Assembly (NCBI GenBank): GCA_049598495.1
Contig: JBMYNR010000046.1
Span: 1 to 10,385 of the forward strand
From: Opitutales bacterium
Lineage (GTDB): Bacteria > Verrucomicrobiota > Verrucomicrobiia > Opitutales > Coraliomargaritaceae
Reading direction: 5' to 3'
Length of the DNA stretch: 10,385 nt
Shown here: positions 2,355-10,385 of the stretch, piece after piece
Position numbering within the stretch: position 1 is the first letter of the stretch
How the letters are laid out: each line of letters starts with the position of its first letter
The notes under the pieces: generated by a model
The model's input: only the letters and a program-made list of their open reading frames with translations
What the model was told of the DNA's origin: nothing
Databases searched by the model: none
Translations under genes and position numbers: made by a program

Positions 2355-3479
2355 ATGAAATATAAGACTCAAACTCTTCAAGAGCTCAAAGAGAAGTCCC
2401 CCCTCGCTGGCTCAAAAAAGGCACTCGTCGGTATCGACGGCTTCGTCGATAAGATTGTTCATCCGGTCGATCAACGCTCCGGCCCGGGCGATCAGTTTCA
2501 GGCGATTCCGACGATCACTGATTTCGCCAACCGAATTGGATCCGCTGCCGGGAAGAGCGCCAATATTGAGCTTGCGCCCGTCGTTGAGAAACTCGGAGGC
2601 AACGGCCCAATTATGGCCAATGCACAATCCGCGCATGGCCTCCAAGTTCGCTACCTTGGCGCCCTCGGGCGTGACAGCATTCACCCCGTTTTTCATGATT
2701 TTGCTGAACGAACAAAGGCCATTTCAATCGCTGACCCAGGCGTGACGCTCGCCGCTGAATTCACCGATGGAAAAATTCTTCTCGGATCCATGGCCAGCCT
2801 CGACGAGATCACCTATGAGCGCATCTGCGAATTACTGGGGAAGGATGCGTTCATTTCGATCCTAGGCGAATCCGATCTTATCACGATGACGAACTGGACA
2901 ATGATCCCTTATCTGACTGATATCTTCCGGAGTCTGATTAGCGATGCCCTCCCCCGGTTACCAAAAAACAAAGACCGTACTTTCTTCTTCGATCTCGCTG
3001 ATCCCGAGAAACGCTCTGAAGCCGATCTTCTCGAGGTCCTGCATCTCTTCAAAGAGTTCGAATCCTTCGGAAAAGTCATCCTAGGACTGAACCTGCGTGA
3101 GGCTGAACAAGTCGACGCGTTACTCGGCTTTGAATCGCTGGCTAATACACCGGAGAATCTGCAAACCATGGCAGCGCGCATTCGCGAGACACTTCAACTC
3201 AACACCGTGGTGATCCATCCTGTAGCCGACTCCGCCTGCGCCACCCCGGAAGGCACCGCATACGTCGAAGGCCCCTTCTGTAAAAAGCCAAAAATCACAA
3301 CCGGAGCCGGTGATCACTTCAACTCTGGCTTCGTCACGGCCAGACTCCTCGGCCTCTCCCCTGAAGCAGCCCTCACCGTGGCCGTGGCCACCTCCGGCTA
3401 CTACGTACGCACCGCCGTCAGCCCAAGCCTTAACGACCTCAGCGAATTTATCGAAACAGGCGGAGCCCTTGTCGAGTAG
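2355..3479 (+). CDS. PfkB/ribokinase-family carbohydrate kinase
   Basis: N-terminal LGGNGPIMANA and C-terminal TTGAGDHFNSGF ribokinase-family signatures. ATG 2355 is preferred over TTG 2304, which lies inside the repeat element. Confidence 0.85.
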   Translation: MKYKTQTLQELKEKSPLAGSKKALVGIDGFVDKIVHPVDQRSGPGDQFQAIPTITDFANRIGSAAGKSANIELAPVVEKLGGNGPIMANAQSAHGLQVRYLGALGRDSIHPVFHDFAERTKAISIADPGVTLAAEFTDGKILLGSMASLDEITYERICELLGKDAFISILGESDLITMTNWTMIPYLTDIFRSLISDALPRLPKNKDRTFFFDLADPEKRSEADLLEVLHLFKEFESFGKVILGLNLREAEQVDALLGFESLANTPENLQTMAARIRETLQLNTVVIHPVADSACATPEGTAYVEGPFCKKPKITTGAGDHFNSGFVTARLLGLSPEAALTVAVATSGYYVRTAVSPSLNDLSEFIETGGALVE

Positions 3480-3495
3480 GTTGTCGCAAGGCCTC

Positions 3496-3538
3496 CTCCA
3501 CCCAACGACCCAATCACTCAACCCGGCGTAAGGCCGCC
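3496..3538 (+). repeat. Second copy of the repeat family 2 right arm
   Basis: CTCCACCCAACGACCCAATCACTCAACCCGGCGTAAGGCCGCC aligns with 2316-2352 CTCCACTCAACCACTCAACTCGGCGCGGAGCGCCGCC, with one extra 8-bp unit. Confidence 0.65.
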
Positions 3539-3562
3539 ACCTCTCGACCACAGCCCACACCC

Positions 3563-3633
3563 AACCGCTCATCACCACTTATCACACGCTTATTATTTCA
3601 CCCATCCAACAAAATTAGCGGTCATTAGCGGTC
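3563..3633 (+). repeat. 10-bp-unit inverted element, copy A (repeat family 1)
   Basis: AACCGCTCAT CACCACTTAT CACACGCTTAT, a 20-bp spacer, then ATTAGCGGTC ATTAGCGGTC. Confidence 0.9.
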
Positions 3634-3662
3634 TAAAACAGACACACAAGCCACATTCAAAA

Positions 3663-4304
3663 ATGCCCGGTTTATTCATCACATTCGAAGGCGGCGAAGG
3701 TTGCGGCAAGTCGACCCAAATCGCGGCTCTTAAAGCGAAGCTTGAAGCCGAGGGTCACGAAGTTATTCAAACCCGTGAGCCCGGGGGCACCTCTCTTGGA
3801 GAAGCCATTCGTCACCTCCTACAGCATGACGAATCAGGCCACGGCATGTCAGCCGAAACGGAACTGTTGCTCTTCGCCGCCAGCCGTGCCCAACACGTGC
3901 GCGAACGGATTGCGCCATCCATTGCTGATGGCAAGGTTGTGCTCTGCGATCGATTCATGGATTCAACCACCGTTTATCAGGGCGTCGCCCGCGCGATCCA
4001 TCCGGACCGAGTCGAGGCCATCAACCAGTTCGCAGTCGGCCAGGCAACTCCCGATCTGACCATCCTGATCGACCTCCCGCCGGAAGTTGGCCTCGCCCGC
4101 GTCCACGCCCGCAGTGAAGGACAACTCGACCGTATGGAACAGGAAGCCATCGAGTTTTTCGAAGCCGTCCGAAAAGGCTATCTGGATTTAGCGGCTGAAG
4201 AACCCGAACGCTTTGTCACTCTCGACGGAAGTAAAAGCATTGAAGAACTTGAGGTGTTAATCTGGGACACCGTAAAAGCGAAAATTCAGTCACCTAAAAT
4301 ATAA
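3663..4304 (+). CDS. tmk: Thymidylate kinase
   Basis: FITFEGGEGCGKSTQ P-loop, TREPGGT, ELLLFAASRAQH, VLCDRFMDSTTVYQG and PDLTILIDL. Confidence 0.97.
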   Translation: MPGLFITFEGGEGCGKSTQIAALKAKLEAEGHEVIQTREPGGTSLGEAIRHLLQHDESGHGMSAETELLLFAASRAQHVRERIAPSIADGKVVLCDRFMDSTTVYQGVARAIHPDRVEAINQFAVGQATPDLTILIDLPPEVGLARVHARSEGQLDRMEQEAIEFFEAVRKGYLDLAAEEPERFVTLDGSKSIEELEVLIWDTVKAKIQSPKI

Positions 4305-4310
4305 GGCTAG

Positions 4311-4392
4311 AACCGCTCATCACCACTTATAACACGCTTATCATTTACAACCATCCTACAACATTAGCGGTAATCAGCAGTAATTAGCGGTA
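4311..4392 (+). repeat. 10-bp-unit inverted element, copy B
   Basis: AACCGCTCAT CACCACTTAT AACACGCTTAT, a 21-bp spacer, then ATTAGCGGTA ATCAGCAGTA ATTAGCGGTA. Confidence 0.9.
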
Positions 4393-4441
4393 TAAAAAAG
4401 ATTCACTAAAAGTCTGATTATTAGTAAACTATCCTAATGGC

Positions 4442-4849
4442 ATGAAGGAACCATCCAGCAGTGAATATTTAAGCAAAGAGGGCTACGAACTGATGGCTGC
4501 GGCCTTTGAGGTACATGCCGAACTGAATGGTGGTCTAGCAGAAGAAATCTACCAAGAGAGCCTACAGTGGGAACTACACTTGCGTGTGATTTCCTACACA
4601 AGTAGGGAACAGCTGAACGTTTTCTACAAAGGACATCAGCTAAACAAAAAATACATTCCGGACTTACTTGTCTTTGACGAGATAGTAACAGAACTAAAGG
4701 CAGTCAAAGAACTGCTGCCCGAACACGAGCAACAGTTGATCAACTATATGCGCATCACAAAAAAAGCAGTGGGTTATCTAATTAATTTTGGTCCGATGAA
4801 ACGGCTTCAATGGAAGCGCTATATCATAAAAGAATTTATTCCTAAATAG
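4442..4849 (+). CDS. GxxExxY protein (PD-(D/E)XK nuclease-like, PDDEXK_3 family)
   Basis: AAFEVHAELNGGLAEEIYQESL contains the GxxExxY motif. PDLLV...ELKAV is the nuclease-type core, and QLINYM...GYLINFG is the family C-terminus. The gene is more AT-rich than its neighbours. Confidence 0.92.
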   Translation: MKEPSSSEYLSKEGYELMAAAFEVHAELNGGLAEEIYQESLQWELHLRVISYTSREQLNVFYKGHQLNKKYIPDLLVFDEIVTELKAVKELLPEHEQQLINYMRITKKAVGYLINFGPMKRLQWKRYIIKEFIPK

Positions 4850-4903
4850 CTACATATCATTAGCAGTTCAGAGGTCTGACACATACATACTGATAATTTT
4901 CAA

Positions 4904-5028
4904 AACCGCTAATCACCACTTATCACACGCTTATAATTTTTTCTCATTCAGCAACATTTACGATAATCTCAGAATAAATTCCATAATTGCTACAGATTAT
5001 TAGCGGTCATCAGCGGTGATGAGCGGTC
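4904..5028 (+). repeat. 10-bp-unit inverted element, copy C (long spacer)
   Basis: AACCGCTAAT CACCACTTAT CACACGCTTAT, a 64-bp spacer, then ATTAGCGGTC ATCAGCGGTG ATGAGCGGTC. The first 21 bp of the spacer resemble the A and B spacers and are followed by what may be decayed right-arm units (ATTTACGATA...). Confidence 0.9.
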
Positions 5029-5054
5029 AGACTCATGCATGCGAAAACAACCAA

Positions 5055-5126
5055 GCCCGCCAATTACCACTTATCAAACGCTTATCATTGTTGCTCATTC
5101 AACAACATCGCCGTGATGATCAGTTC
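5055..5126 (+). repeat. 10-bp-unit inverted element, copy D (degenerate)
   Basis: GCCCGCCAAT TACCACTTAT CAAACGCTTAT, spacer CATTGTTGCTCATTCAACAAC, then a decayed right arm ATCGCCGTGATGATCAGTTC. Confidence 0.75.
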
Positions 5127-5132
5127 AAATCT

Positions 5133-6278
5133 ATGAAATACGAATTCAACAAGTGCCCCGACAGAACGGGCTGCGGTAGCCTAAAATGGGATAAGTACAA
5201 AGGACGCGACATTCTGCCACTCTGGGTCGCGGACATGGACTTCCTCACTGCCCCGGAAATCCTCGACGCGCTTCAGCGGCGCCTCGACCACGGCGTCTTT
5301 GGCTACACCATACCTCATGAAGCCCCGATCGAAGCGGTGATCAACTACCTCGCTCGCCAGCATGGCTACAGCGCAAAGGCAAGCTGGCTGAACTTCCTCC
5401 CCGGACTCGTCCCCGCAATCAACCTCTGCTGCCACGCTTTTCTAAAGCCCGAGGAGTCGGCCATCACGATGACCCCGGTCTATCCGCCCTTTCTCAGCGC
5501 ACCTGATTATGCCGGACGTGAGCTAATCAAAGTCCCACTCTGCCTGAACGCTTCAGATCAATGGACGCTCGATATCGATGCCATGGAAGCGGCAGTGAGG
5601 CCAAATACCCGCATGCTCATTCTTTGCAGTCCACACAACCCCGTCGGACGCGTCTTTAATAAAGAAGAACTCAGCGCACTGGCTGATTTCTGCGAGCGGC
5701 ACGACCTGATCATCATCTCCGACGAGATCCACTGTGACCTCGTCTTCGATGCTGAGGCGAAGCACACCGTCACCGCTACCCTCAGCGGGAAAATCGCTGA
5801 CCGCACCGTCACCCTCATGGCGCCCAGCAAGACCTACAACTTACCCGGTCTCGCCTGTGCCTTTTCCGTCATAGAAAATCCCATGCTACGCGCCCGCTTC
5901 CGCGAAACGATTCGCGGGATCATCACCGAGGTCAACTGCTTCGGCTACGCCGGAATCACCGCCGCCTACAACCATGGTGAACCCTGGCGCCAAGCTCTGC
6001 TCACCTATCTGCGTGGCAACTACGAGTTGGTCTACGACTTCATGAAAACGGAACTACCCGAGATCACCTTCCGCCCGATGCAGTCGACCTACCTAGCCTG
6101 GTTCGACGTCAGTCAGCTCGAATTAAAAGACCCCGTCGGACATTTCGAAAAACACGGGGTCGGCCTCTCCGACGGCACGCCCTTTGACGGTCCGCAACAC
6201 CTGCGCCTAAACTTCGGCTGCCCGCGCACGCGGCTCGAAGAAGGGCTGGAGAAGATGAAAGTGGCGGTCCACACATAA
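5133..6278 (+). CDS. MalY/PatB-family PLP-dependent C-S lyase/aminotransferase
   Basis: SLKW, LPLWVADMDF, HGVFGY, LCSPHNPVGRV, ISDEIHCDL, APSKTYNLPGL (PLP lysine) and LRLNFGCP. ATG 5133 is preferred because the ORF-track extension from 5016 runs through repeats C and D. Confidence 0.93.
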   Translation: MKYEFNKCPDRTGCGSLKWDKYKGRDILPLWVADMDFLTAPEILDALQRRLDHGVFGYTIPHEAPIEAVINYLARQHGYSAKASWLNFLPGLVPAINLCCHAFLKPEESAITMTPVYPPFLSAPDYAGRELIKVPLCLNASDQWTLDIDAMEAAVRPNTRMLILCSPHNPVGRVFNKEELSALADFCERHDLIIISDEIHCDLVFDAEAKHTVTATLSGKIADRTVTLMAPSKTYNLPGLACAFSVIENPMLRARFRETIRGIITEVNCFGYAGITAAYNHGEPWRQALLTYLRGNYELVYDFMKTELPEITFRPMQSTYLAWFDVSQLELKDPVGHFEKHGVGLSDGTPFDGPQHLRLNFGCPRTRLEEGLEKMKVAVHT

Positions 6279-6383
6279 AACCGACTGCGTCGGAAACCGC
6301 TAATCACACGCTAATTTAATCCACAGCGTCGAATCGGCCATTGCCGATTCTCATAAGCGGTTATTAGCGGTCAAAAAATGGAT
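6271..6383 (+). repeat. 113-bp duplicated intergenic block containing element copy E (6295-6372)
   Basis: Matches 8243-8365 with 5 substitutions and one 10-bp indel. It contains hairpins CCGAC-TGC-GTCGG and GAATCGGC-CATT-GCCGATTC, the malY stop region and the ATGGAT start of the next gene. Confidence 0.93.
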
Positions 6384-6758
6384 CATATAAGATTAGACCG
6401 CTGGCTCTGGGCGGTGCGAGTGTATAAAACCCGCAGCGATGCCACCGATGCCTGCCGCGGCTCCGCAGTGCGGCTCAATGGCGGGATCGCCAAGCCCTCG
6501 GCCAAAGTACGTGTGGGTGATACCGTTGTTGCCCGCACCAAAGCACTCACGCGCACCTTACAAGTCAAAGCCCTCACGGATAAGCGAATCGGCGCCCCGC
6601 TCGTTGCCGAATACCTCGACGACCAAACCCCAGAATCCGAATACGAAAAAGCCCGCGAAAAGCGGGCCCATGCCAAAGTGTTTACCCATAAAGGCGGCGG
6701 GCGACCAACCAAGAAAGATCGCCGTGACATTGAAAAACTAATCGGATCGGAGACATGA
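6378..6758 (+). CDS. hslR: Ribosome-associated heat shock protein Hsp15 (S4 RNA-binding domain)
   Basis: IRLDRWLWAVRVYKTRSDA, AKPSAKVRVGD and C-terminal GRPTKKDRRDI. Confidence 0.93.
   Translation: MDHIRLDRWLWAVRVYKTRSDATDACRGSAVRLNGGIAKPSAKVRVGDTVVARTKALTRTLQVKALTDKRIGAPLVAEYLDDQTPESEYEKAREKRAHAKVFTHKGGGRPTKKDRRDIEKLIGSET
6721..6752 (+). repeat. 32-bp direct repeat, left copy (3' end of hslR)
   Basis: GCCGTGACATTGAAAAACTAATCGGATCGGAG; 31/32 identical to 8131-8162. Confidence 0.92.
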
Positions 6759-6843: not shown

Positions 6844-8007
6844 TTAAGAATGATTTGAAAATGAGTTTCCGCCTGCCAGTTCTACCGCTTCTGCGAGAAA
6901 AGACAGTCCAGTTTCAATGTAAGCTCTTTTCTTATTTAAATACGGCTGCTCGCTATCCGTGCTTACCAAAATCAAGCGTGCATTTGGATAGGAAGACTGA
7001 AAGGCGGAAAAATGATTCTCTTGGCCGGACTTAAGCTTCCACTTGCATTCGATCGCAAGCGGTGCCTCTCCTCGTCGAGCGAGCACAAAGTCTATCTCTC
7101 GTTTGCGTTTATCCCGCCAATAAAATAAGTGCTCCGGCTCAAAATGAGCACGCAACTCGTCCAATACCAAATGCTCCCAAAGTCCCCCATAATCTTCATG
7201 CCGCAAGTCCCGCCACCCCCGCGCATGACAAACAAATCCCGTATCAAATCCATACACTTTCGGCATCGATACAATTTCCTTTTGCGGGTTCTTGAAAAAT
7301 GGACGCAATACATGGACGGCCCCCGTTGCTTCCAACACACCAAGATAGTTTGATAGCGTCTGTCGACTGGCACCACAAACCGAAGTTAAGCTGCTGAGTT
7401 CACATAACTGCCCACTCTGTGTCAGCAGGAGCTCTAAAAGCCGCATGAACGCGGTGCGCTTCTCCAAGCGAAATAACTCCTGAATATCCCTCGCCCAGAA
7501 AGCATCCATCCATTCCACAAAATCTTTTTCCGGAAACCCCTCTGAAATAAGATTCTCGGGCAAGCCTCCATGGTACATCCGAGTCTTCAAATCAGCTCCA
7601 AACACTTCCAATTCACTGAACAATACGGGAGCCAGGTGCAGCTGCCTTTTTCGTCCTGAAAGTGTGTCGCGAAATCGTCGACTCGCTCCGAGCGTCGAAG
7701 ATCCCGTCGCCAAAACTCGCAAATTCGGGAAATGATCCGCAGCTATTTTTAGAAGTTCAGACGGCTGTGCAACCCGATGCACTTCATCTAGGATCAAACG
7801 ATTGTTTCCCGCCTGCTCTAGAAAGCCCTCAGGGTCCTCTTCAATCAGTCTGCGCACGCGCGGCAACTCACAGTCAAAATAAACCACATCTTGCAAACTG
7901 CGAGTCAAAGTCGTCTTCCCCACCCGACGCACACCCGTCAACCACAGCACCGGACGTTCCCGCCAAGCCTGCTCCACTCGACTTTGCCAATAAACTCTAT
8001 TTACCAT
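6844..8007 (-). CDS. AAA_14-family ATPase with C-terminal DUF4143 (PD-(D/E)XK-like) domain
   Basis: Walker A GVRRVGKT, Walker B LILDEVH, ATGSS, L.GR, GGLP, PKVYGFDTGF, LWEHLV and YWRD...EIDFV...AIECK. ATG 8007 (MVNR) is preferred over TTG 8067. Confidence 0.9.
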   Translation of the reverse strand: MVNRVYWQSRVEQAWRERPVLWLTGVRRVGKTTLTRSLQDVVYFDCELPRVRRLIEEDPEGFLEQAGNNRLILDEVHRVAQPSELLKIAADHFPNLRVLATGSSTLGASRRFRDTLSGRKRQLHLAPVLFSELEVFGADLKTRMYHGGLPENLISEGFPEKDFVEWMDAFWARDIQELFRLEKRTAFMRLLELLLTQSGQLCELSSLTSVCGASRQTLSNYLGVLEATGAVHVLRPFFKNPQKEIVSMPKVYGFDTGFVCHARGWRDLRHEDYGGLWEHLVLDELRAHFEPEHLFYWRDKRKREIDFVLARRGEAPLAIECKWKLKSGQENHFSAFQSSYPNARLILVSTDSEQPYLNKKRAYIETGLSFLAEAVELAGGNSFSNHS

Positions 8008-8130
8008 ATGCAAACAGAAATAACTTTTAGATATACCAAATGCAAATCTAATTTCATGTAATTCCAAGCACTAACTGTAGATGATGATTCGCCATCCAGA
8101 AATAATTTAAGCCTACTTGGAGTGCGCACA

Positions 8131-8165
8131 GCCGCGACATTGAAAAACTAATCGGATCGGAGTGA
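8131..8165 (+). repeat. 32-bp direct repeat, right copy: orphan hslR 3' end with its own stop codon
   Basis: GCCGCGACATTGAAAAACTAATCGGATCGGAG followed by TGA reads RDIEKLIGSE*, whereas hslR ends RDIEKLIGSET*. Confidence 0.9.
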
Positions 8166-8171
8166 AGCCGA

Positions 8172-8191
8172 GACCGCTCATCACCACTAAT
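8172..8191 (+). repeat. 10-bp-unit element, copy F (left arm only)
   Basis: GACCGCTCAT CACCACTAAT, located 6 bp after the orphan hslR stop codon. Confidence 0.8.
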
Positions 8192-8242
8192 GAAAATCCT
8201 CATGCGAGCATAGCGACAAGACCAGACCATTGAGGATTCAAT

Positions 8243-8365
8243 ACACATAAAACCGACTGCGTCGGGAACCGCTCATCACCACTAATCACACGCTAATCTA
8301 ATCCACAGCATCGAATCGGCCATTGCCGATTCTCATAAGCGGTACTTAGCGGTCAAAAAATGGAT
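8243..8365 (+). repeat. 123-bp duplicated intergenic block containing element copy G (8267-8354)
   Basis: Direct repeat of 6271-6383 with one additional 10-bp unit. Confidence 0.93.
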
Positions 8366-8989
8366 TCCTCTCTGCAACAAATTGATTACGAAGCTTCCTG
8401 CCCTGAATTACCAGAGCCGTTTAAATCTTTAGTCGTGCACGCCGACGAACTGTGGAACCAATTCTGGGCGCAAAAGCTGAACAAACGTTATCCTCGTTAT
8501 ATTGCCAGCGAGCCGGCACAGGTGTATGCCGTGCTTAAACACGTGCGCGATGAGGACCTCGCCTATGGCGATCGTTTCATCGAATGGGGCAGCGGATTCG
8601 GGCTGGCTAGCAGTATGGCTTCCATGCTCGGCTTTGAAGCCACCGGCATCGAACTCGAAGAAGGCCTCGTGAAGATTGCGGAAAAACTCGCCGAAGCCCA
8701 CCAAACGGGTGCTGATTTTATTCACACCAGCTACATCCCTGAAGGTTACATTAGCTACGACCACATCGGCGGCAGCGACATCGTCCCCGACGACAGTTTT
8801 GGCCACCAAGCCGGACCACCCAAATATGAAGGGATGGAGATCGGCTTGGACGAGGTCGATGTCTTCTTCGTCTACCCCTGGCCCGGCGAACAGGAAATGA
8901 TGCTTAAGCTCTTTCAATCCGTCGCCAGCGAAGACGCCCTACTCATCGCCTACCTCGGTGACCGGGAGATCTGTCTGTATCGGCGTTAA
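8360..8989 (+). CDS. Class I SAM-dependent methyltransferase-like protein
   Basis: Motif I-like FIEWGSGFG, acidic beta-2 ATGIELE, and DVFFVYPWPG at the beta-4 position. Substrate unknown. Confidence 0.75.
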   Translation: MDSSLQQIDYEASCPELPEPFKSLVVHADELWNQFWAQKLNKRYPRYIASEPAQVYAVLKHVRDEDLAYGDRFIEWGSGFGLASSMASMLGFEATGIELEEGLVKIAEKLAEAHQTGADFIHTSYIPEGYISYDHIGGSDIVPDDSFGHQAGPPKYEGMEIGLDEVDVFFVYPWPGEQEMMLKLFQSVASEDALLIAYLGDREICLYRR

Positions 8990-9058: not shown

Positions 9059-9106
9059 GCCAGACGGGAGTCTGGCGTTCCCGGGATCGCCAGACTCCCG
9101 TCTGGC
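9059..9106. repeat. 48-bp near-perfect palindrome (two REP-like units back to back)
   Basis: GCCAGACGGGAGTCTGGCGTTCCC|GGGATCGCCAGACTCCCGTCTGGC has one mismatched pair. Each half is itself a hairpin, GCCAGA-N6-TCTGGC. Confidence 0.85.
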
Positions 9107-9153: not shown

Positions 9154-9230
9154 TCCCTACCCGTTCATAAGCGGTTCCCGCACAGTCGGCCCGGCGCTGC
9201 AGACAACGAAGGCGACACAGACTCACTCTA
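9154..9230 (+). repeat. Direct repeat of at least 77 bp, left of the toxin-antitoxin pair
   Basis: Matches 10308-10385 (window end) with 3 substitutions and a 1-bp indel. Confidence 0.92.
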
Positions 9231-9429: not shown

Positions 9430-9876
9430 TCAAAGCAATTGATCAATATAATTATCCACCCGTACACACGTCTGCTCCAATGCTGGAATCACTCGCTGGC
9501 AGTAGACAAATAAATCGGGTAGTTGCAGCCCTGCATAGTCGTGCGCAATGCGGTTTCGAACATCCTTCAATTCACGCAACCAATCCACCCCCGGAATTAA
9601 CCCACGAGCCTCCGCACGATTGGCCGTATCCAACAAAGTCCCTGGCTCAATCAGCTCATACCGGTCAATCGCCCGCAAGACACGATTGATCAACAAATCG
9701 ACCACACGCGCAAATCGACTGGTAAACGCCTCCACTTTTTCCAATTCAAGCTCGGACCATTTCCCCGCGCCCGCAACAGAGGAAACCGATTCAATCGAAA
9801 AACTCAAATGCTTCCGCGCATCCAGCAACTCCTGCCGCGCAGACTGTAAAACTGCTGCATATACCGAATCACTCAT
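9430..9876 (-). CDS. HEPN-domain RNase toxin (nucleotidyltransferase substrate-binding family)
   Basis: RNRIAHDY matches the HEPN R-X4-H motif. The protein looks all-helical, and the gene has a 4-bp overlap with the upstream MNT gene. Confidence 0.85.
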   Translation of the reverse strand: MSDSVYAAVLQSARQELLDARKHLSFSIESVSSVAGAGKWSELELEKVEAFTSRFARVVDLLINRVLRAIDRYELIEPGTLLDTANRAEARGLIPGVDWLRELKDVRNRIAHDYAGLQLPDLFVYCQRVIPALEQTCVRVDNYIDQLL

Positions 9877-10160
9877 AGCCGTTCACCTGTCTCCATTGCA
9901 ACCCGAGCAATCGCACTCAGGCCAACACGTTCATTTTCGATGATCAAATCGAGCTTCTGCCAACCAATACGATCCAAGATTTCGCGCCGTATCGGCCAAA
10001 GGTCATCAAAACCAAGCCGATCTGAAAGCACCAACAGATCAATATCGCCCCCACGCGCCTGATCATCCACACGAGAGCCAAACAAGAGAACCCGTGCATC
10101 AGGATCAGCCTTATGGATCGAGTCACGAATTACTTTTTGTTCCTGTTGGGTCAGTCTCAT
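9873..10160 (-). CDS. Minimal nucleotidyltransferase (MNT) antitoxin
   Basis: 95 aa with LFGSRVDDQARGGDIDLLV (GS-X10-DXD) and the third Asp in KLDLII. Confidence 0.9.
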   Translation of the reverse strand: MRLTQQEQKVIRDSIHKADPDARVLLFGSRVDDQARGGDIDLLVLSDRLGFDDLWPIRREILDRIGWQKLDLIIENERVGLSAIARVAMETGERL

Positions 10161-10285: not shown

Positions 10286-10315
10286 GGATCGGCCCCTTGG
10301 CGATCCTTCCCTACC
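10286..10315 (-). repeat. REP-like palindrome with GTAG head
   Basis: The - strand reads GGTAGGGAAGGATCGCCAAGGGGCCGATCC, with hairpin GGATCG-N9-CGATCC. Confidence 0.55.
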
Positions 10316-10385
10316 CGTTCATAAGCGGTTCCCGCACAGTCGGCCCGGGCGCTGAATACACCGAAGGCGACACAGACTCACTCTA
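10308..10385 (+). repeat. Direct repeat right of the toxin-antitoxin pair (runs off the window end)
   Basis: Copy of 9154-9230; 10348-10385 reads GAEYTEGDTDSL. Confidence 0.92.

Follow-up and report, generated by a model that had tools for sequence, protein, structure and literature searches.

Why should a small nuclease gene of the GxxExxY family lie in the midst of hairpin repeats, at a junction between two host genes that is closed in related bacteria? We addressed this question in a 10,385-bp stretch of DNA from an Opitutales bacterium (GCA_049598495.1, contig JBMYNR010000046.1). This stretch, hereafter the window, is the entire contig C46 and makes up 0.6% of its source genome (G000; 1.75 Mb, 73 contigs, 95% complete, G+C ~53.6%, 53.7 ± 3.6%). 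The gene belongs to a type of cassette in which a small gene is placed between inverted arrays of 8–10-nt tandem units, usually with AACC(G/A)C at the outer end, and is set co-directionally between housekeeping genes. Within this type, the clade of the window protein is always linked to (A/T)TNAGCGG units. Our preferred reading, to which we assign a probability of roughly 0.4 on the basis of sequence comparison, is that the nuclease recognizes and cleaves arrays made of its family's unit and that repair spreads the cassette and its hairpins.

The gene is intact and runs on the plus strand from an ATG at 4442 to a TAG at 4847–4849 (4442..4849). Its 135-aa product matches PF13366 (PDDEXK_3) with an E value of 3.7e-36 and 124.5 bits (cut-off 22) over profile positions 3–116 of 117, and TIGR04256 (GxxExxY) with an E value of 7.3e-37 and 126.3 bits (cut-off 35) over positions 3–116 of 116. 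The family motif is present as G31/E34/Y37 and the catalytic residues as D74, E84 and K86, all six of which are invariant in an alignment of 10 proteins. The top Foldseek match of an AlphaFold2 model of the protein (pLDDT 93.9, pTM 0.86) is the Cas4 protein SSO0001 (4ic1; E = 3e-4, TMq 0.56), and further matches include 3ijm (restriction-endonuclease-like), lambda exonuclease, LHK-Exo, Hjc resolvases, RecE and RecU. Profile, motif, catalytic residues and modeled fold all place the protein in the GxxExxY family, and by fold and motif it is a predicted minimal PD-(D/E)XK nuclease. A sequence search of the PDB with the window protein returned no relative, the sole match being spurious (E = 0.46); searches of PADLOC and PHROGs returned no match, and the gene has no match to PF01797 (Y1 HUH). 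The consulted portion of a survey of PD-(D/E)XK proteins lists the function of PF13366 as "Unknown" (PMC3424549), and that of a second paper contains a single passing mention (PMC8934634).

The gene is part of an AT-rich block of ~830 bp that also carries three gene-less hairpins and that is inserted into a junction closed in relatives. We regard the block as an insertion because its two neighbors abut or overlap in congeners. These neighbors are tmk, encoding thymidylate kinase (3663..4304, plus strand; PF02223, E = 4.1e-53), and a malY-like class I/II aminotransferase gene (5133..6278, plus strand; PF00155, E = 7.4e-37), the latter 72–80% identical to its congeners at the nucleotide level. 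In a DNA search of 30 relatives, tmk and malY lie side by side in congeners, with a gap between matched segments of 45–165 nt in G009, G017, G008, G003, G006, G016, G015, G004 and G005 and of 887 nt here; in G009, no element is present and the two reading frames overlap at ATGA (tmk stop, malY start). The initial annotation had proposed to check whether the two genes are adjacent with one element in relatives: the adjacency holds, but in congeners it comes without an element. The same junction in G011 (C66:3200–4100) holds ~630 bp with a PF05635 23S_rRNA_IVP four-helix-bundle gene (E = 1.8e-31), with inverted GTTGAGTGG/CCACTCAAC units on both of its flanks. Because that junction contains a PF05635 gene instead, two different small-gene cassettes entered one site independently. 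By eye we saw no target-site duplication at the cassette borders, and the inserted block contains no transposase domain, the two features by which a miniature inverted-repeat transposable element (MITE) or an insertion sequence is recognized.

The base composition of the block differs from that of its surroundings, with a G+C content of 41.7% in the gene and 39.7% across the insert (4305–5132), compared to 55.5% in tmk and 57.5% in malY. A G+C content as low as that of the gene is rare in the genome (0.24% of 8458 windows of 408 nt). The hand counts by which the initial annotation noted the AT-richness are exact (21/60 G+C at 4621–4680 and 29/60 at 4501–4560 in the gene versus 38/60 at 5761–5820 in malY). 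The public sequencing runs listed for this stretch include no RNA run. Among public contigs from four DNA runs that cover 3400–6400, the part containing the gene is uncovered in X7 and X8. In run X2, a contig over 4312–4933 has a word depth of 20.4, compared to 64.5 and 75 for the flanks. This value of about one-third hints that some cells may lack the gene, although contigs break at the repeated arms, none spans the gene and contig depth cannot rank the parts, and we draw no conclusion from it about presence and absence alleles.

Cassettes of this kind recur throughout the source genome, which has ten PF13366 loci, six intact and four broken. Nearly every one of them lies between inverted repeats of two or three tandem 8–10-nt units, and the unit differs from locus to locus, with at least eight different unit words in this one genome. 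We scored each locus by the best local inverted repeat between the 160 nt upstream and the 160 nt downstream of the gene and obtained values of 59, 51, 41, 41, 37, 31, 29, 26, 24 (the window gene) and 16. Nine of the ten score at least 24, whereas 1500 random intervals have a median of 16 and a 99th percentile of 23, and 1817 open reading frames (ORFs) of 90–250 aa have a 99th percentile of 25; the highest-scoring ORFs in this second control are GxxExxY genes, PF05635 genes and one insertion-sequence fragment. Cassette sites are accD|folC, gatA|gatB, metK|ahcY, trkA|trkH, pheS|pheT, leuB|alaS, a CcsB-like gene, a purM-like gene and prfA, and the small gene is co-oriented with both neighbors at 9/10 loci (binomial P = 0.011). 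Across the phylum, PF13366 is present in 74 of 151 sampled genomes, often in several copies, and 25 of the 27 best loci with full flanks score at least 28. Against mismatched pairs of upstream and downstream flanks, a control that is inflated by the recurrence of unit words between loci, 22/27 reach the 95th percentile and 14/27 the 99th. The outer end of the arm reads ACC(G/A)C at 25/33 loci counted by eye, an end that the window hairpins share. The proposed enrichment of tandem-unit inverted repeats in the flanks of GxxExxY homologues is therefore borne out in both the source genome and the phylum.

The elements around the window gene have two arms: the left one is a series of ~10-nt units, first AACCGCTNAT and then CACCACTTAT-like ones, and the right one is composed of ATNAGCGGT units. 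Our repeat search found the left arms (family D1) at 3563, 4311, 4904 and 5055; family D2 corresponds to the right arms. Gene-free hairpin A (3563..3633) lies 30 nt upstream of tmk, is 87% identical to B and has three ~10-nt left-arm units starting with AACCGC and two right-arm ATTAGCGGT units. Gene-free hairpin B (4311..4391) has three left-arm units, a loop and three right-arm units, and gene-free hairpin C (4904..5028) has three units per arm around a long loop. Element D (5055..5126), which is 65% identical to B and ends 7 nt before the malY start codon, has a recognizable left arm and a decayed right arm. Folded as single-stranded DNA, the elements form hairpins that are more stable than those of shuffled sequence, D excepted: A is weak at −5.5 kcal/mol (z −2.2), B reaches −5.4 kcal/mol (z −1.4) on the plus strand and −10.0 kcal/mol (z −3.4) on the minus strand, and C reaches −14.6 kcal/mol (z −2.9) and −20.8 kcal/mol (z −5.1), respectively, while D folds no better than shuffled sequence (z −0.7). 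The bracketing of the gene by B upstream and by C and D downstream, first noticed by inspection, was recovered by the repeat search, and the stray unit ATTAGCAGTT reported after the stop codon lies at exactly 4859–4868.

Orthologues of the window protein, which are 54–73% identical to it, display a range of layouts. Terminal inverted repeats that enclose the ORF occur at eight other GxxExxY loci of the source genome and at the orthologues G019 and G005:C74, which have the canonical order of left arm, gene and right arm. In G006:C287 and G004:C143, the left arm and gene are followed by a complete left arm, loop and right arm, and in G018:C103, G005:C93, G018:C222, G005:C116 and G064 the gene lies between two hairpins. 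The G064 locus (L070; G064:C154:10600–12600), from another taxonomic family, has a window-type gene 63% identical to ours in a dense array of ATTAGCG-unit hairpins, and the left arm downstream overlaps this gene, its first unit containing the stop codon. The window copy probably retains approximately one unit of its own per side, and the inverted repeat around it, with its score of 24, is supplied by neighboring hairpins: B contributes its right arm and C its left. The gene does lie among the elements, as had been described, but its place is between complete hairpins, whereas genes of this family usually occupy the loop of a hairpin.

We read the stray unit after the stop codon (ATTAGCAGTTCA, 4859..4870, plus strand) as a probable relic of the right arm of the gene's own cassette; its counterpart in an alignment with the canonical cassette of G019 is the right-arm unit placed 5 nt past the stop codon. 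Upstream, CT.AT-type words with ~10-nt spacing and a CCTAATGGC before the ATG (4412..4441, plus strand) give only an impression, by eye against the intact left arms of G019 and G005:C74, of a possible decayed left arm. G005:C74 and G006:C287 share a downstream flank, indicating that they occupy one site, but in one of the two a left arm plus loop of 78 nt separates the stop codon from the right arm. This difference shows how a gene-less hairpin can arise beside a gene. Against the suggestion that the gene-free copies are non-autonomous derivatives stands the observation that those adjacent to the gene are complete hairpins and not the arms of its cassette.

To follow the unit beyond the window, we searched for doublets of the form ATNAGCGGT-N-ATNAGCGGT with at most one mismatch, using the reversed pattern as the control. 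The source genome has 39 matches at ~25 loci in its 1.75 Mb and the control has none. Twelve of the 39 fall inside the window and six of these in 4311–5126, confirming that this is the densest cluster, and many of the gene-less copies lie at contig ends. The copies fall into several subfamilies, and elements A–D occur only in this window. At the other nine GxxExxY loci, the arm sequences are essentially not repeated elsewhere in the genome, making ATNAGCGGT the only multiplied unit family, and the window gene, within 86 nt of a doublet, is the only one of the ten GxxExxY genes to lie within 100 nt of one.

The link between unit and protein clade extends well beyond this genome. TNAGCGK units are present at 12/12 loci with a gene of the window clade (window-type genes), with 3–17 of them within 250 nt, in three taxonomic families; G064 was chosen with knowledge of its nearby repeats, and the loci that came from the protein search alone give 9/9. 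At loci of other clades, at least two such units are found in 3/36 and at least four in 0/36, and the unit sequence thus co-varies with the protein clade as the initial annotation had proposed to check. Among the 19 genomes of the genus, whose kinship means that the statistics are not independent, TNAGCGK doublets exceed the control in 6/6 genomes with a window-type gene and in 1/13 without one (Fisher P = 0.0003). When only the GxxExxY-bearing genomes of the genus are compared, elements are in excess in 6/6 with a window-type gene and in 1/4 without (Fisher P = 0.03). In the phylum sample, richness in these elements is confined to genomes with PF13366: eight of the carriers are rich in them, against 0/77 of the genomes without it. 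An abundance of elements in genomes devoid of GxxExxY genes, which would have spoken against a cognate relationship, was accordingly not seen in this sample.

Both the gene and its arms show signs of constraint. Comparison of the window gene with its orthologues gives a pN of 0.20–0.32 and a pS of 0.80–1.0, which is saturated, with four-fold sites 8–45% identical; the nuclease gene is held under purifying selection. At the site that is orthologous in G005 and G006, protein identity is 95%, and identity at the first, second and third codon positions is 90, 98.5 and 53%, respectively. The arms at this site are identical in 30/32 and 25/27 positions (55/59 in total), compared to 72/136 third codon positions (Fisher P = 1e-8), and we therefore find the arms to be constrained about as strongly as the protein. 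Similarly, the left arms of G019 and G064 are alike in ~27/32 positions, while their four-fold sites match in 5/22.

Cognate recognition of the repeat by the nuclease is plausible from these sequence relationships, and our preferred reading builds on it. The nuclease would bind with sequence specificity to arrays of its family's unit, probably in the form of an oligomer that contacts units spaced by one helical turn, and would nick or cut the DNA there. With another copy as the repair template, the cassette and its hairpins would be duplicated or converted in a homing-like process, the outcome of which would be local clusters and dispersed gene-less copies. Expression of the nuclease may be supplied by transcription of the host operon. 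A reader encoded by the cassette is favored because the eight or more unit words of a single genome are individually conserved and a single host factor cannot read all of them, and also because the periodic array suggests repeated protein contacts and not a mere stem. The role of cognate mobilizer that the initial annotation proposed for this gene is thus supported in part by the flank enrichment, by the co-variation of unit and clade and by the 0/77 count. Its analogy to the RAYT transposases, however, fails on enzyme class, as the protein is a predicted PD-(D/E)XK nuclease and not a Y1 HUH transposase.

Several observations weigh against the proposal that the nuclease mobilizes its own repeats. 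The cassette design of the GxxExxY genes is common to PF05635 genes: seven of the nine PF05635 loci in the source genome score at least 22, and this unrelated four-helix-bundle family fills similar cassettes, including the one at the tmk–malY junction of G011. The layout consequently does not require a nuclease. G011 is also element-rich, with 28 doublets, although no window-type gene was found in it; of its GxxExxY matches, the one nearest to the window protein shares only 39% identity with it. Within the genus, GxxExxY genes and Y1_Tnp-like genes occur in exactly the same 10 genomes and nine streamlined genomes hold neither, and the genus correlation is confounded by this split between mobilome-rich and streamlined genomes. 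The intact hairpins in the window sit beside the gene and not around it, linkage alone would make arms and gene co-vary, and selection on hairpin pairing alone could also slow the divergence of the arms. In addition, a pseudogene at C2:67949 with ATTAACGGT-type arms, considered as the closest paralogue of the window gene, is 33% identical over 55 aa and is not the closest.

Part of this evidence would fit into a scheme in which the hairpins are the mobile or recombinogenic entity, moved by a Y1/HUH transposase in trans, by host recombination or by replication slippage, with the small genes as cargo and the nuclease having another job such as defense or addiction. The initial annotation had raised the cargo role as an alternative, and it stays viable since cassettes of similar design also house genes that do not encode nucleases. 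The layout is common to two unrelated gene families, both of which are found at the tmk–malY junction in two congeners, the gene-less hairpins of the source genome far outnumber its genes, G011 has elements without a window-type gene, and the window gene itself lies between complete hairpins. Y1_Tnp-like genes are furthermore present in all 10 genomes of the genus that bear repeats and GxxExxY genes and in 0/9 of the others; they are multi-copy in these 10, with up to 39 per genome. The source genome has four weak Y1_Tnp (PF01797)-like matches, inside long ORFs at C12:8429, C24:9074, C2:37212 and C57:5252. These lie on contigs without a doublet or tens of kilobases from the nearest one, and none of the four is within 100 nt of a doublet, which counts against the scheme; among the PF05635 loci the number within 100 nt is 0/9. 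Any mobilizer shared in trans would also have to tolerate a different unit word at each cassette, the protein clade and unit type stay together across three families despite saturated synonymous sites, and a defense role finds no match in PADLOC or PHROGs. We consider the cargo scheme a serious contender, somewhat less likely than our preferred reading.

An effect at the level of RNA, as in rRNA intervening sequences, appears improbable to us. Here, the arms would pair in the operon transcript, RNase III would cut the stem, the cassette RNA would be released with limited damage to the operon, and the function of the protein would be unrelated to the repeats. The layout agrees with that of ORF-bearing 23S intervening sequences as described in the consulted portion of PMC4990558 (terminal inverted-repeat stem, small ORF, low G+C, RNase III excision), the cassettes are co-oriented inside operons at 9/10 loci, and the arms abut start and stop codons. 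Changes compatible with wobble pairing are not in excess on the sense strand, however, with 26 sense and 35 antisense mismatches beside 65 transversions in the arms of 33 loci (binomial P = 0.31), and for B and C it is the minus strand, not the transcribed plus strand, that gives the better fold. A plain stem, moreover, needs no tandem-unit structure, and the gene-less hairpins are numerous. Least probable is a host function, in which the unit arrays would be regulatory or nucleoid-protein binding sites and the GxxExxY gene an ordinary host gene among them. Four genes, namely tmk, malY, the S4-domain gene and the gene at 8360, do have an element that ends 3–30 nt ahead of their start codon, and many elements terminate in GGTATAAA. 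Both elements and gene are nevertheless absent from the closest small-genome congeners, in which tmk and malY overlap; the block is AT-rich; four of the ten GxxExxY loci of the source genome are decayed; and a promoter and terminator scan of 3500–6450 did not rise above shuffled sequence (three promoters found, 2.7 expected).

Further elements and repeats are present elsewhere in the window. Gene-free hairpin E (6295..6375; −18.6 kcal/mol, z −4.9) belongs to another subfamily, and gene-free hairpin G (8268..8355; −12.2 kcal/mol, z −3.4) is a copy of it with one additional left-arm 10-nt unit and 94% identity, the 10-nt indel being present in a public contig as well; both have a relative at C32:10501. 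Element F (8172..8242) consists of the left arm and part of a subfamily with a ~150-nt loop and lacks the right arm (compare C6:56640, C19:3361 and C33:3941). The tail of malY, element E and the first bases of the next gene (6271–6383) are repeated 1972 bp downstream at 8243–8365, where the copy contains element G with its additional unit, and the joint of this repeat is also found in a public contig. The tail of the S4-domain gene is likewise duplicated (6721–6752 and 8131–8162), and the two pairs of repeats bracket this gene and an AAA_14/DUF4143 ATPase gene (6844–8067, minus strand). A hairpin of a second unit family lies at 2249–2335, with GTTGAGTGG / CCACTCAAC units and 26-nt arms that are 85% complementary, between an HD-domain phosphohydrolase gene and a ketohexokinase-like gene; its units are those found around the four-helix-bundle gene of G011. 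A sister hairpin family with TTTAGCG-type units and an AACCGC end is represented at 1–60, where the copy is truncated by the start of the contig, and at C19:3071, C38:6866, C47, C32 and C39 of the source genome. Finally, a spacer-free palindrome of 48 nt with 24-nt arms, 96% complementary, occupies 9059–9106 downstream of the gene at 8360–8989, and a direct repeat of ~77 nt (9154–9230 and 10308–10385; 41 nt identical, then 90%), whose second copy reaches the contig end, flanks a HepT-like/nucleotidyltransferase toxin–antitoxin pair (9430–10160, minus strand).

If the nuclease does read its own repeats, the locus would join a nuclease to its recognition word in a compact, programmable-looking form, and a class of intergenic hairpin repeats would have an explanation. 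The ATNAGCGGT unit array is in any case the first candidate, testable DNA target for one clade of the widespread GxxExxY family, and the locus and its relatives supply a natural series from canonical cassette to cassette plus hairpin, gene between hairpins and gene-less hairpins. A wider generalization would make GxxExxY mini-nucleases the engines of transposase-free mobile DNA, with lineage-specific words, arrays that bound cassettes, cutting-driven copying between operon junctions and ORF-bearing rRNA intervening sequences as one branch; we offer it as a speculation that is probably too broad. Full-text literature searches, with subscription journals and supplements outside their reach, brought up no description of such cassettes.

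The elements have features in common with several known classes of repeat. Like MITEs and foldback elements, they are short, dispersed, gene-less hairpins with inverted ends that cluster in intergenic regions and break assemblies at contig ends. They differ in that no target-site duplication is seen and no DDE transposase partner was identified, and in having tandem-unit arms and a mini-nuclease as the partner. Repetitive extragenic palindromic (REP) sequences and REPINs form, together with RAYT, a system (REPtron) in which a Y1 HUH (IS200-like) transposase gene accompanies a larger population of gene-less palindromic repeats. The window gene resembles this arrangement in that few protein genes stand beside many gene-less repeats of a single family, inverted copies surround the gene and the repeat family tracks the protein lineage. 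A gene-less palindromic population of the gene-flanking family is present here as well, with 39 doublets and none in the control. The partner gene, on the other hand, belongs to PF13366, PF01797-like genes are not near the elements, and the repeats are tandem-unit arrays in place of the single short palindrome of REP.

Homing endonuclease genes, which may be free-standing or intron-borne, include the PD-(D/E)XK type I-Ssp6803I. By analogy, the window gene would be a small selfish gene that could spread when its nuclease cuts an empty site and repair draws on an occupied copy, without a transposase or a target-site duplication. Indirect evidence that bears on such copying consists of the occupied and gene-less hairpins of one family and of the gain or loss of a left arm plus loop at the G005/G006 site. 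The window gene differs in having no intron or intein, and its presumed target would be a repeated hairpin family and not one allelic site.

To our knowledge, the origin and mobility of the ORFs in rRNA intervening sequences have been open questions since the 1990s. The 23S intervening sequence of Coxiella burnetii has a 28-bp terminal stem, an S23p ORF, excision by RNase III and a low G+C content, and the older idea that such an ORF serves mobility is cited in the same source (PMC4990558, consulted portion). The block described here differs from these sequences in lying between tmk and an aminotransferase gene rather than in a 23S rRNA helix, in encoding a predicted PD-(D/E)XK nuclease, in having arms of 8–10-nt tandem-unit arrays with an AACC(G/A)C end, and in its many gene-less hairpin copies, its gene between hairpins and its lack of a sense-strand wobble bias. 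The cassette type to which it belongs resembles them in having a small ORF inside terminal inverted repeats, of which the window copy probably keeps about one unit per side, a G+C content below that of the host, a sporadic distribution and no transposase, and the S23p/PF05635 family itself occupies similar cassettes in the source genome and at the tmk–malY junction of G011. The locus thereby ties the GxxExxY family to the cassette design of the rRNA intervening-sequence ORFs.

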